Below, piece after piece: positions 2,704 to 52,085 of a stretch of DNA of 64,000 nucleotides. Numbering within the stretch: the stretch's first letter is position 1; the number at the start of each line of letters is the position of its first letter. This DNA is from Candidatus Bathyarchaeota archaeon RBG_16_48_13 (lineage in GTDB: Archaea; Thermoproteota; Bathyarchaeia; RBG-16-48-13): positions 25,460 through 89,459 of the forward strand of contig MEZH01000001.1 of the NCBI GenBank assembly GCA_001775995.1. Direction: 5' to 3'. The notes beneath the pieces are model-generated. The model saw only the letters and a list, made by a program, of their open reading frames with translations. It was not told the DNA's origin and did not search any database. The position numbers and the translations under genes are program-made.

Positions 2704-3186
2704 TGTGTAACCGAGCTTCTTTACCAGCTCCCGTCGCTCTGTTCGCTGCGCTTCATTCTCTATGTTCTCCGCGCTTTTTCCGTCTACAACGCCTATAATG
2801 GATTTGCCCAGCTGCGTCTTGCCCACCAAAACCTCCACGTTGTTGGCTGTTGCAGCCAAGATGGAACAAACCCCGGGCAATTTTTTAATCTCGTTAAGGA
2901 CATTGATTGGATATGCATTTTCGAAAATTATGAGGAAAGCGTGGCCAGCACCTATTCTCATCAGGTTTTCTGCTGCCCTTTGTCCCAGAGATTCATCATT
3001 GCAGGCATAACGAGTGAGCTTGGGAACTGCTTCGTTGAATGCCACGCCGACTTTTATGCCTTGGACTGAGTCGAGACAGGCCCGATAAACGTCGTCAACC
3101 ATCTTTATCGAGAAGTTGCCCATTCCAATTACTACCTGTTGACTCGGTTTCTTGTCAATTTTAACCACTTCTACATCGACCTGCAT
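2695..3186 (-). CDS. Adenosine-specific kinase family protein (PF04008/PAE2307-like)
   Basis: 163 aa. By recollection the overall pattern fits the small archaeal PAE2307-type family (IGMGNF..K.VDD, VAFNEA...L.RY, RIGAGH.F, YPINVLN, ATAN, IGVVDG). Not verified by search. Confidence 0.55.
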   Translation of the reverse strand: MQVDVEVVKIDKKPSQQVVIGMGNFSIKMVDDVYRACLDSVQGIKVGVAFNEAVPKLTRYACNDESLGQRAAENLMRIGAGHAFLIIFENAYPINVLNEIKKLPGVCSILAATANNVEVLVGKTQLGKSIIGVVDGKSAENIENEAQRTERRELVKKLGYTLG

Positions 3187-45576: not shown

Positions 45577-45844
45577 TCATTTTTTCGGTATACGCTTTAC
45601 CTCAAATACTACCCCGTTAGGATCAGGGGCAATGGGTATAGACTATGGATTTATCGCTTCCTTTTGCCCAAGGAAGATTGGCACCGCCAGTTAAGGCGGC
45701 AGCTTGCCAATACAAGTTGGTCGCTGCCTCCAAACAGGGCTTGCCATTAGTTGTTGTTCCATCGATCTCAAAATTCTCGCCAACTTTGTGACCATGCCCG
45801 CATTTGCCGACCTCTTTAACCGTTACCAATGATTTGTAGATCAT
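45577..45844 (-). CDS. TIGR04076-like small Cys-rich protein, C-terminus displaced by a 1-nt frameshift in a C4 run
   Basis: From MIYKSLVTVKEVGKCGHGHKVGENFEIDG..C..A...GGANLPW..THCP. The track ORF stops at 45623. Removing one C of CCCC (45626-45629) restores PDPNGVVFEVKRIPKK, with a stop at 45577. Confidence 0.5.
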
Positions 45845-47930: not shown

Positions 47931-48461
47931 CTAGACAACGCGCATATTCGAAATAATCAATCCTTTGAAGCCCGCTTTCTCCAACTTTTCGCTTATTTTC
48001 TTTAAGATGTAGATGAGAAGTTCACGAATTTGAATTCTACGAACACCTTGCTCATGGAAAACCAAGATCTCAAAAGTCTTAGAAGAGAAGAGGAAACGCA
48101 ATATGAAGTGATCAAATTTGAGAGGAACCCACTTCTCATTTTTGTTCCGGTGATATTTTACTATTAATAGAAAGTCAAGGATTGGCGAGGGATCGTTCCT
48201 AGTCAGCTGAAGCCAATACTGACTTACCTCATTGGGCTCTAAGTAATGGAAAAATGCGTCCTCAGCAATCCCAACCTCGAAGGAAGTAGCAACAACGAAA
48301 TCTTCACTACTATTGAATTCGAAAGCAGCGGTTTCCCTTATTGAGTTCAATTCACATAGACTCTGAATTATAAAGAATTGGATCTTATTGGAGACAAAGA
48401 CATGAGTAAGTCTGGCTCGTCCATGGTATTTATTTGGGAAATTTACGTATCGCCCAAACAT
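47931..48461 (-). CDS. Hypothetical protein
   Basis: 176-aa ORF filling the gap between tmk and the Hef locus. No motif recognised. Confidence 0.4.
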   Translation of the reverse strand: MFGRYVNFPNKYHGRARLTHVFVSNKIQFFIIQSLCELNSIRETAAFEFNSSEDFVVATSFEVGIAEDAFFHYLEPNEVSQYWLQLTRNDPSPILDFLLIVKYHRNKNEKWVPLKFDHFILRFLFSSKTFEILVFHEQGVRRIQIRELLIYILKKISEKLEKAGFKGLIISNMRVV

Positions 48462-48546
48462 ATCAGCTATTTATCCTTTCCAAAGAGATAAAAAGCATTT
48501 ATCTTCATCACTGGCTCTTACCAAGGATCGAAGATCTATATCTCAA

Positions 48547-48965
48547 ATGGCAGAAGAGTTTGCAGCGCCTTCATTAATTCATGGTGGGATTGCTGAAAGA
48601 AGAGAGTATCAAGAGAGAATTGTTCAGACAAGGCTAAGAGAGAATACCCTAATAATTCTACCAACTGGCTTGGGCAAGACCGTTATTGCCGCCATGGTGG
48701 CAATCGAAAGATTGAGAACCTTTCCTGATGGACGAATTTTGGCCTGGGCACCAACCAAGCCCTTGGTTGAACAGCATTGTATGAGATTCAAAGAATTCCT
48801 AAATCGGAGAAAGTACAATGTTAGTAGCTACTCAAGTTGCTGAGAAAGGATTAGACATAAGCGAGCGCGACTTGGTGATCTTATGATAACGTTCCCAATA
48901 CTATCCGATTTATTCAACGCCGTGGCAGAACAGGGGAAACGAGTCAGGGCGCATCGTGATTCTAT
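48547..48965 (+). pseudogene. hef: Decayed Hef helicase domain (large internal deletion plus several frameshifts)
   Basis: Frame 1 gives YQERIV..LPTGLGKTVIAAMVA..APTKPLVEQH (motifs I/Ia) and stops at 48843. Frame 2 gives LVATQVAEKGLDISERDLVIL (motif V). Frame 3 gives YDNVPNTIRFIQRRGRTG (motif VI). Frame 2 again gives SGRIVIL. Motifs II to IV are absent. Confidence 0.8.
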
Positions 48966-49779
48966 GGCAGAAAAACCAAAGGACGAAGCTTATTATTGGA
49001 TAGCAAGGTCTAGAGAAAGGAAAATGCAGGAGAGTCTATCTAGCATGCACCAGAAAACGAAAAAGGATGCTGAACTACTCAAACTCGATCATTTCATTAG
49101 TCAGAGGAGGGGGGTTTCGATAATATCAAACGAAAAAAAGATTCATATTCATATGGACAATAGAGAGACCTCATCTCTCATTGCCAGAGAGCTTTTGACT
49201 CTAGGTGCTGATGTCAAGCTATCCAATCTGCCAGTTGGAGATTATATCCTTTCCGACAGAATAGCAGTGGAACGCAAGAATTCAAATGACATGATTTCAT
49301 CGATCATCGACAGACGATTGTTTGACCAGTTGAAAGCTCTCAAAGAAGCGTATAGTGTTCCGCTTCTTCTTATAGAAGGAATTGACCTCTTGGGCATCAG
49401 AGGAATGCATCCTGAAGCCATAAGAGGAGCATTAGCTAGTGTGGTTGTCGATTACGGGATATCGATATTATGGACGATGAATCAAATGGAAAGTGCTCAA
49501 ATGCTCTATACTATTGCTAAGAGAGAACAAACGGAAAGAGAGACTCGGGTCACAATACGGGGCGAGAAGAAGCCTCCCTCGATAAAAGAGATGCAGGAAT
49601 TTTTGATAGCAGGTTTGCCAAACGTGGACTCAGTATTGGGTAAGCGACTTCTAGAGCACTTCGGAAGTGTGGAAGGAGTATTTTCTGCAACGAAAGAACG
49701 TTTAATGGAAGTACCAGGAATAGGAAAAAAGATTGCTGAAAAGATAAGGCTTGTTGCCTCTCATATGTACGGCAAGTGA
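48883..49779 (+). CDS. xpf: XPF/Hef-type ERCC4 nuclease with (HhH)2 domain
   Basis: 298-aa intact ORF. KDEAYYW linker, VGDYILSDRIAVERKNSNDMISSI (GDxnERKxxxD), C-terminal GLPNV..LLEHFGS..VPGIGKKIAEKI. Confidence 0.85.
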   Translation: MITFPILSDLFNAVAEQGKRVRAHRDSMAEKPKDEAYYWIARSRERKMQESLSSMHQKTKKDAELLKLDHFISQRRGVSIISNEKKIHIHMDNRETSSLIARELLTLGADVKLSNLPVGDYILSDRIAVERKNSNDMISSIIDRRLFDQLKALKEAYSVPLLLIEGIDLLGIRGMHPEAIRGALASVVVDYGISILWTMNQMESAQMLYTIAKREQTERETRVTIRGEKKPPSIKEMQEFLIAGLPNVDSVLGKRLLEHFGSVEGVFSATKERLMEVPGIGKKIAEKIRLVASHMYGK

Positions 49780-51666: not shown

Positions 51667-51893
51667 TGGCATGTTTACACGAAACCAGTCTTGATGCTCT
51701 TTCAAAAGAAAAAAATCCGATCATAACGTTCGAGTATATTTCTACATGTAATGCCAGCATTTTAACAGCGATTGTCAAAACTGCTTTCTTAGTATGCATG
51801 TGACTTTTGAAAAGTGCTCTCTAATATAGCATAGAAATGCTGGTAAAACTTAAGAGTACATATGCATTCTAACAACAGAGAAGGTTAAGCCTT

Positions 51894-52085
51894 ATGAGTA
51901 AGAAGGACAAGTCGAAAAAGTCCGCACCAATGCCAGCTATGAGTGCAGGGTTGCTTCGTTTCTTTGAGGAGGAAACGACCGGAATAAAGGTGAAACCCGA
52001 GATTGTGATGGCCATCGCGGCTGCTCTAATAATGCTAGCCATATTAGGACAACTGCAAACAAATGGTTTACTGCCCTTTTTCTAG
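51894..52085 (+). CDS. Preprotein translocase subunit Sec61beta
   Basis: 63 aa. Basic N-terminus, SAGLLRFFEEE..GIKVKPE, then a single C-terminal TM helix. Confidence 0.75.
   Translation: MSKKDKSKKSAPMPAMSAGLLRFFEEETTGIKVKPEIVMAIAAALIMLAILGQLQTNGLLPFF

Follow-up and report, generated by a model that had tools for sequence, protein, structure and literature searches.

Probable remains of a full-length hef gene in a bathyarchaeon, with a decaying helicase half in front of a conserved nuclease

Hef, XPF, Mus81 and FANCM belong to one family, whose members differ in which half of the protein, helicase or nuclease, is alive. Short XPFs such as that of Saccharolobus solfataricus carry a C-terminal PCNA-binding tail, and eukaryotic XPF has a degenerate helicase-like domain. 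In both eukaryotic XPF and FANCM one enzymatic half has been inactivated, the FANCM nuclease being degenerate, and the Hef of Thermoplasma acidophilum consists of the helicase only (PMC4838364). Here, we describe a locus in Candidatus Bathyarchaeota archaeon RBG_16_48_13, within a stretch of 64,000 nucleotides (contig MEZH01000001.1, positions 25,460 to 89,459 of the forward strand; hereafter the window). Window positions 48547-49779 are very probably the remains of a formerly full-length hef gene (SF2 helicase, ERCC4 nuclease and (HhH)2), and we hold with equally high confidence that this gene has suffered deletion and continuing decay of its helicase half, with strong selection maintaining the nuclease half. 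The remnant of the helicase half is the segment 48547-49044.

Every surviving part of the locus has a counterpart in Pyrococcus furiosus Hef (PDB 1WP9; 1J22-1J25; 1X2I), as the helicase remnants, the nuclease and the HhH2 region all match it, and the best NCBIfam model is that of the Hef nuclease. An initial sequence-only reading of the window had recognised a fossil Hef helicase in front of an intact nuclease open reading frame (ORF) and had pointed to P. furiosus Hef as the comparison to make; the remnants do align to 1wp9 and 1j22, and reading frames together with Pfam, PDB and tblastn matches bear this recognition out. Unlike in P. furiosus, the helicase in the window is destroyed (∼344 codons, including DEAH and the thumb, are gone and the rest is frameshifted), and only the nuclease half can be made. 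In this it resembles the short XPFs of Aeropyrum pernix (2BGW/2BHN) and S. solfataricus (PCNA-dependent), which have the same ERCC4 + (HhH)2 layout without a helicase, and by analogy the same activity, cutting of 3′-flap and fork DNA, would be expected of its product. However, the window nuclease is not a short XPF by descent, as it branches inside Hef, and its PIP-like motif is N-terminal and appears to come from the Hef linker. The two halves are also uncoupled in T. acidophilum Hef, but there the helicase was kept and the nuclease lost, the opposite of the window. Whereas in XPF and FANCM the dead half remains in the protein as a folded, functional scaffold, in the window it is untranslatable DNA that is being deleted.

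A different kind of uncoupling occurs in Bathyarchaeia family f9, where two genomes (G024 and G031) have Hef split into two genes at different loci. In each, a stand-alone helicase of 538-552 aa with the thumb domain PF21210 (G024:C24:24916-26430; G031:C1:453856-455364) is accompanied by a nuclease-only gene of 252-257 aa (G024:C1:18619-19251, L010; G031:C6:142248-142895, L011), which lies inside the Hef clade in the tree and adjoins UPF0147. No helicase fossil was detected beside either nuclease gene. Both halves were thus kept in these genomes as separate genes, whereas the window lost the helicase outright and its remnant is still visible. Hef has been described in a review as specific to Euryarchaeota (PMC7776575). 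Full-length Hef proteins with helicase, thumb, ERCC4 and HhH2 (P0121-P0238) are annotated in Bathyarchaeia, Hermod-, Odin- and Thorarchaeota, Brockarchaeota, Altiarchaeota and Nanohalococcus; since full-length Hef is common in Bathyarchaeia, Asgard archaea and other lineages, the restriction to Euryarchaeota needs revision.

The locus is a positional orthologue of full-length bathyarchaeal Hef. Its gene order is HD phosphohydrolase, Tmk (thymidylate kinase), a divergent 176-aa ORF, the hef locus, a p27-like zinc ribbon, UPF0147 and PALP, and the same order flanks an intact Hef in the related genomes G005, which belongs to the same taxonomic order (756 aa), and G004 (761 aa) and on the metagenome contig of protein P0121 (765 aa). 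Of the full-length relatives P0121 is the closest, sharing 65-66% of residues in the nuclease and 70% in the N-terminal part. In a maximum-likelihood tree of nuclease + HhH2, the window and its relative L023 (discussed below) fall inside the full-length Hef clade and group with G005 (support 97/94), while the short XPFs of the same class (220-250 aa) form a separate clade; the nuclease is therefore Hef-type by tree. Against the NCBIfam Hef nuclease model NF010337 the ORF scores 260.4 bits, over positions 563-779 only and short of the 610-bit cut-off, which P0121 exceeds with 865.5 bits; against the Xpf model NF040956 it scores 156 bits, below the 300-bit cut-off. Orthologous loci in relatives, which the sequence-only reading had singled out as informative, include full-length forms (G004, G005 and P0121) and decayed ones (L023 and L085, below), and the nuclease-only genes of G024 and G031, which descend from Hef, occupy a locus of the same kind.

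Within the remnant, frame mod1 holds a 98-aa ORF (48547-48843), the first 86 codons of which (48547..48804, + strand) are the Hef N-terminus, with a Q-like RREYQ, motif I (LPTGLGKT, 48658-48681) and motif Ia (APTKPLVEQH, 48748-48777). This N-terminal remnant is still an open frame in the window strain and runs on through junk to the TGA at 48841-48843; it gives a Pfam DEAD match of 1.1e-12. Motif V follows in frame mod2 from 48818 (MLVATQVAEKGLDISERDLVIL, a stretch also written LVATQVAEKGLD), within a remnant (…KYNV/LVATQVAEKGLDISERDLVIL) that spans 48807..48883 (+). Motif VI is read in frame mod0 from 48882 (YDNVPNTIRFIQRRGRTG) and passes into (N)ESGRIVIL in frame mod2, the whole remnant, YDNVPNTIRFIQRRGRTG with [R]NESGRIVIL, occupying 48882..48963 (+). 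At 48964 the mod1 frame returns with MAEKPKDEAYYW, opening the last helicase helix DEAYYW and the start of the linker (48964..49044, +), and continues into the ERCC4 + (HhH)2 ORF, which ends at 49779. The sequence-only reading had put motifs I and Ia in a frame ending at 48843 and motif V, motif VI, SGRIVIL and KDEAYYW after it in changing frames, and all were found at those places. The stitched motif V-VI piece matches Helicase_C at 1.5e-10, so that the profile similarity on which the identification of these motifs had been staked is significant.

The extent of the loss was estimated in two ways. Aligned to the P. furiosus Hef helicase (1wp9), the stitched translation covers residues 7-∼90 and 414-494, leaving ∼330-345 residues missing between motif Ia and motif V. 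With P0121 as tblastn query, the N-terminal part is recovered at 67% identity over 89 aa (E 4e-36), the motif VI frame at E 1e-6 and the motif V frame at E 1e-5; protein identity to P0121 is 70% over residues 1-86, 90% in motif V, 89% in motif VI and 88% in the DEAYYW/linker part. The N-terminal part is collinear with P0121 up to Asn86 (…RFKEFLN, 48804), and homology resumes from Glu431/Gly432 (EG[I/K]YKVLVAT). With these breakpoints, set at the protein level against P0121, ∼344 codons are gone (P0121 residues 87-430), comprising motifs Ib, II, III and IV and the thumb insertion domain. The junction of this ∼1.03-kb deletion (DW) lies at 48804..48806 (+), as located by tblastn with the P0121, G004 and G005 Hefs. 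The absence of motifs II-IV and the inserted domain was thus correctly noted at the outset, although the 350-400 aa then proposed was too many. Of a complete SF2 core (motifs I-VI) plus thumb, only motifs I, Ia, V and VI are left, across three frames. An in-frame origin of the large deletion through FKE/ESF microhomology was considered and rejected, as the N-terminal part passes the repeat through FLN and the junction in a related strain type (B-type, below) is out of frame.

Five small deletions account for the frame changes in the window strain, more than the three or four first counted: 1 nt after 48806 and 2 nt at 48816-48819, both strain-specific and both in the motif V remnant; 2 nt at ∼48884, just before motif VI; 1 nt (C) after 48935, within it; and 1 nt (A) after 48963, by which the nuclease frame is regained. 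Their order can be read from the B-type strain (runs X9, 2019, and X12, 2025; 93-97% identity to the window). The same junction, out of frame, is present in its contigs (…FLN, a single C, then GAG GGA AAG TAC AAA GTG TTA…, i.e., (C) EGKYKVLVAT), and they share the 2-nt loss at ∼48884, which is absent in L023 and its sister contig L085. B-type nevertheless retains the bases that the window has lost after 48806 (A), 48816 (A), 48818 (G), 48935 (C) and 48963 (A), the last three of which had been predicted as losses from protein alignments before the B-type contigs were seen. An X12 contig over 48400-48926 has the A after 48806, the A after 48816 and the G after 48818, as does X9 in a loose end, and an X9 contig over 48854-49064 has the C after 48935. 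The motif VI of B-type is almost identical to that of P0121. Because B-type has the junction and the 48884 lesion but retains the other bases, the earliest events were the frameshifting deletion of ∼1,031 nt and the lesion at 48884; the four other small deletions of the window strain followed later. A third strain state is seen in an X11 contig that jumps from 48730 to ∼48915, a further deletion. In mechanistic terms, the ∼1,031-nt deletion would have killed the helicase and uncoupled the nuclease from its original start codon, the 2-nt deletion would have come next, and the four remaining ones would have arisen later in the window's own strain.

A second decayed form is found in L023 and L085, two contigs of sister species that are syntenic with the window and whose nucleases are each 89% identical to its own. 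They share a different, larger deletion (window 48649-48857) that took out motifs I, Ia and V. Two 1-nt losses, in the N-terminal part and in GAC-GAA, are likewise peculiar to this pair; each contig also has private stop codons and indels, with many replacements, and the DEAYYW/linker stretch is scrambled in L023. None of the small lesions of the window is present in either. A 1-nt loss at 48963/64 shared by the window and L023 (both having 20 nt between CTA and GAAGCTT) was examined as a possible ancestral frameshift and discarded, since a shifted alignment fits much better (13/20 vs 6/20 matches) and shows that L023 and L085 keep the 48963/64 base and lost a different one in GAC-GAA. Decay has gone considerably further in the remnants of L023 and L085: polarised by P0121, 12/31 residues have changed in the motif VI stretch of L023 against 5/31 in the window (counted by eye). 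The fossil is 65-69% identical between the window and L023, close to the value of ∼66% calculated for neutral change from a dS of 0.445 (Jukes-Cantor); together with the stop codons, this makes a lack of constraint on the protein clear for L023 and L085. A 21-aa block of the window around motif I (RENTLIILPTGLGKTVIAAMV) is identical to P0121; in simulation, the chance that a 22-aa block (these residues and the next) stays unchanged was 5e-5 under neutral drift along the whole branch (d = 0.21) and 0.16 at d = 0.04. The window-strain fossil, in which the loss is too recent for much substitution, shows a run of strain-specific deletions and a few derived replacements. The closeness of the remnants to P0121 and the low chance of the unchanged block under full-branch drift argue for a recent, separate loss in the window lineage. 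Comparison of these sequences makes it probable that selection maintained the helicase until recently in the window lineage, and that the helicase was lost twice independently, early in L023/L085 and late in the window and B-type.

The nuclease gene shows none of this decay. The minimal conserved ORF of 244 aa (49045..49779, +; Pfam ERCC4 2.7e-32, HHH_5 6e-11) contains the ERCC4 domain (about 49153-49512, +) with an intact GDXnERKX3D, of which the catalytic motif GDY…ERK…D reads GDYILSDRIAVERKNSND (49237-49290, +), and the (HhH)2 region for dimerisation and DNA binding (about 49612-49752, +), in which both HhH motifs are intact. Its best structural matches are 1j22 (7.9e-40) and 2bgw (8e-33, residues 201-405 of the stitched protein) for the nuclease, with 9e-15 for HhH2. 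From ATG 49045 to the stop codon, the ratio of non-synonymous to synonymous substitution (dN/dS) is 0.119 between the window and L023, 0.124 between the window and L085 and 0.088 between L023 and L085; the nuclease part is under strong purifying selection. The claim of an intact nuclease and (HhH)2 with GDxnERKxxxD holds, but not its start at 48883, as the first 27 codons from there are out-of-frame motif VI junk.

For the same reason ATG 48883 was rejected as a start codon. ATG 48964 was rejected too, since its place is taken by ATT in B-type and by GTT/ATT in L023/L085. The window, L023 and L085 all have ATG 49045, with no change reported in the B-type contigs, and a Met stands at this position in P0121, G004 and G005; a Shine-Dalgarno-like GGAGAG (49029-49034) precedes it. 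L023, with two stop codons upstream of this ATG, has no other possible start. ATG 49045, the only start conserved in all lineages, therefore appears to be the credible start of the nuclease. Ten residues into the conserved ORF is the sequence KLDHFI (49075-49098, +), with counterparts QPKLDRFI in G005 and QPKLETFI in G004. We regard it as a PIP-like box of the linker, immediately behind the helicase, apparently inherited from the Hef linker and putatively a PCNA contact; a PCNA-binding box of Hef has been described at roughly this position (PMC4838364). No PIP-like tail was seen at the C-terminus of the window nuclease. A side observation concerns the linker of L023 (∼2995-3018, equivalent to window 49024-49047): a conserved ATG corresponding to window 49024 opens a 6-codon mini-ORF whose TAG stop codon is separated from the nuclease ATG by one base (TAGAATG), an arrangement resembling termination-reinitiation, whereas in the window ATG 49024 is in the nuclease frame.

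Between the 176-aa ORF and the old Hef start lie 85 nt (48462..48546) that are 90.6% identical to L023, compared with 65-69% in the fossil. They contain two back-to-back TATA-like boxes, GAGATAAA at 48485-48492 (= TTTATCTC on the minus strand) and TTTATCTT at 48498-48505, and this conservation suggests that the Hef promoter has probably been retained here and serves the divergent gene as well. The transcript would then probably still begin at the old promoter, with the fossil as a long 5′ leader; such a role would explain why the ends of the remnant persist while internal deletions whittle away its middle. Translation would most likely begin at the internal ATG 49045, with GGAGAG before it, and the product would be a homodimeric nuclease cutting 3′-flap and fork DNA, like the isolated P. 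furiosus Hef nuclease domain and the short XPFs.

As a bathyarchaeon, a placement that the names of its closest homologues support, the host belongs to TACK; in Bathyarchaeia, full-length Hef and short XPF occur together in some genomes. Its assembly is a metagenome-assembled genome (MAG) of 16 contigs and 849 kb, 75% complete, in which the window locus is the only Hef/XPF match. No second XPF or Hef gene was found in this assembly with queries that detect such genes in relatives, and the thumb domain PF21210, detected in G004, G005, G024 and G031, is absent from the whole of it. The same searches show short XPFs or stand-alone Hef helicases in most relatives, but no short XPF was found in G005, the nearest catalogued genome with Hef; a scan of catalogued genome contigs returned distant relatives only and no close genome. 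An Hjc-like resolvase gene is present. Haloferax volcanii can dispense with hef as long as hjc is not deleted (PMC7776575). Given that result, the Hjc-like gene and the lack of a second XPF-family gene in the assembly, the lineage may have kept the nuclease because it has no other flap/fork nuclease of the XPF type, whereas the helicase and its fork remodelling would have become dispensable.

A decayed gene in a 16-contig MAG invites the explanation that an intact Hef of ∼760 aa was broken by assembly or sequencing error or by strain chimerism, particularly as a near-identical strain fails to reproduce at least one further 1-nt frameshift of the window. That case, at 45623-45629, served as a positive control: in an X3 contig of 499 nt with 1 mismatch, the GGGG run at 45626 is shorter by one base, so that the 'homopolymer frameshift' of a TIGR04076-like gene is an assembly error or strain polymorphism and no fixed lesion. 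Applied to hef, the same kind of contig check gave the opposite result. Contigs of six runs (X1, X3, X4, X5, X10 and X11, from at least five studies over several years) have 0 gaps at the lesions; a single 527-nt X3 contig spans 48484-49010 with 0 differences, the other five runs covering parts, and on these exact matches assembly error is rejected. The junction and every small lesion are thereby matched, none of the runs has a contig that leads on from 48804 into motif Ib, and the related strains yield other deleted forms and none intact. Exact matches from independent runs, in a check that is able to fail, establish that the Hef lesions are real in the population; an artefact is extremely improbable, and the original judgement that this is genuine decay rather than sequencing error stands. 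No more credible is a functional mini-Hef made by recoding (frameshifting) or by splicing of bulge-helix-bulge (BHB) introns, an idea encouraged by the single stop codon (TGA 48841-48843) in frame mod1 between 48547 and 49779. Against orthologues the lesions are deletions and not insertions that splicing could remove, no ATPase is possible with motifs II-IV and the thumb absent, and strains that are 93-97% identical differ in their lesions. A tendency to small deletions across the genome of the window strain, or genome reduction still under way, may lie behind the run of lesions in the fossil, although at least one isolated frameshift, that at 45626, is not fixed.

The number of losses is less secure than their reality. 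A single inactivation before the window and L023/L085 split, with the different deletions representing later trimming of one pseudogene, would account for the way the sister-clade deletion (48649-48857) swallows the window junction, since it could be a secondary 209-nt deletion, and whether it arose in a full-length or an already deleted gene cannot be read directly from it. The three lineages are also almost equidistant at synonymous sites (dS 0.42-0.49), which implies that the branch carrying the lesions shared by L023 and L085 was short. We nonetheless consider one ancestral loss improbable: no lesion is common to both groups, the window and B-type remnants are nearly pristine in motif V, motif VI and the N-terminal part where L023 and L085 carry stop codons and many replacements, and the unchanged motif I block would have a probability of only 5e-5 under whole-branch drift. 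More improbable still is that the whole locus is dead and the nuclease an unexpressed relic that has merely not yet acquired a stop codon. The uncoupled original start codon, RNA runs none of which contains the locus, and the lack of a clear conserved archaeal promoter directly upstream of 49045, where the fossil is 65% identical to L023, could be taken in that sense, but the nuclease has held a dN/dS of ∼0.09-0.12 across three lineages while the adjacent fossil drifts, its catalytic and HhH motifs are intact, its ATG and Shine-Dalgarno-like element are conserved, and it is the sole XPF-family gene in the assembly. Besides the swallowed junction and the near-equidistance, three further points weigh against a recent helicase loss with retention of the nuclease as we describe it: support from reads comes as short contigs of low depth (k-mer depth 2-6) rather than as raw pile-ups; promoter, transcript and start codon are all deduced from sequence; and the missing quarter of the genome could hold a second XPF or a stand-alone Hef helicase.

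The 176-aa ORF (47931..48461, − strand) has no Pfam or NCBIfam match, is conserved in synteny in L023, L024, L025, L085 and the P0121 contig, divergently adjoins Hef in all related genomes examined (G004, G005, the P0121 contig, L023 and L085), and has remained intact where the helicase has been lost; a functional partnership with Hef is one possibility, mere sharing of the promoter region another. Further downstream, the P0121 contig has a 439-aa serine hydroxymethyltransferase (SHMT) gene between PALP and Sec61-beta, whereas in L023 PALP is followed directly by Sec61-beta, and in the window the gap of ∼415 nt between PALP and MBL (51667-52081) is too short for it. The absence of SHMT here may be another gene loss or relocation in the clade.

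How helicase-dead and nuclease-dead states arose in this family is known from deep comparisons only. Here, loss of the helicase half is visible in progress within one genus-level group, with the nuclease conserved throughout. Its stages are represented by a relative that is still intact, then by strains that carry, respectively, the founding deletion, additional small ones and a further deletion, and finally by sister species whose deletion is older and larger. What appears to be new is a recent, multi-stage and apparently repeated helicase loss with its fossil still legible. The sequence-only reading had called the locus a snapshot of the transition from Hef to XPF; this is sustained as regards an XPF-like conversion but not as regards the historical crenarchaeal transition, the nuclease being Hef-type by tree and by score (260 vs 156 bits) in a TACK host. 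The evidence thus supports a recent, apparently repeated replay of the conversion of Hef into an XPF-like enzyme, in which the historical transition itself is not represented. The process is an ordinary evolutionary one, domain loss and pseudogene decay in an uncultured organism, and the locus is an evolutionary case and no new mechanism.

Nature has here provided genetic evidence for the usefulness of a Hef nuclease that has lost its helicase, at least in the presence of Hjc. A one-step route from long to short form is also suggested, with translation starting internally, in the linker ahead of the PIP-like motif. As full-length Hefs have a conserved in-frame Met and a PIP-like box in the linker, the nuclease could have been expressible as soon as the helicase was deleted. 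More tentatively, the change from Hef to a nuclease-only, PCNA-binding, XPF-like enzyme could be a recurrent and selectively favoured path in this bathyarchaeal clade; we think this possible but rather doubtful, on the grounds that the clade apparently lacks a short XPF, that at least two independent helicase deletions have probably occurred and that the nuclease was constrained each time. If it were true, the clade would offer a natural replay of how short crenarchaeal XPF could arise from a Hef-like ancestor, and intact hef genes might already be making a nuclease-only isoform.

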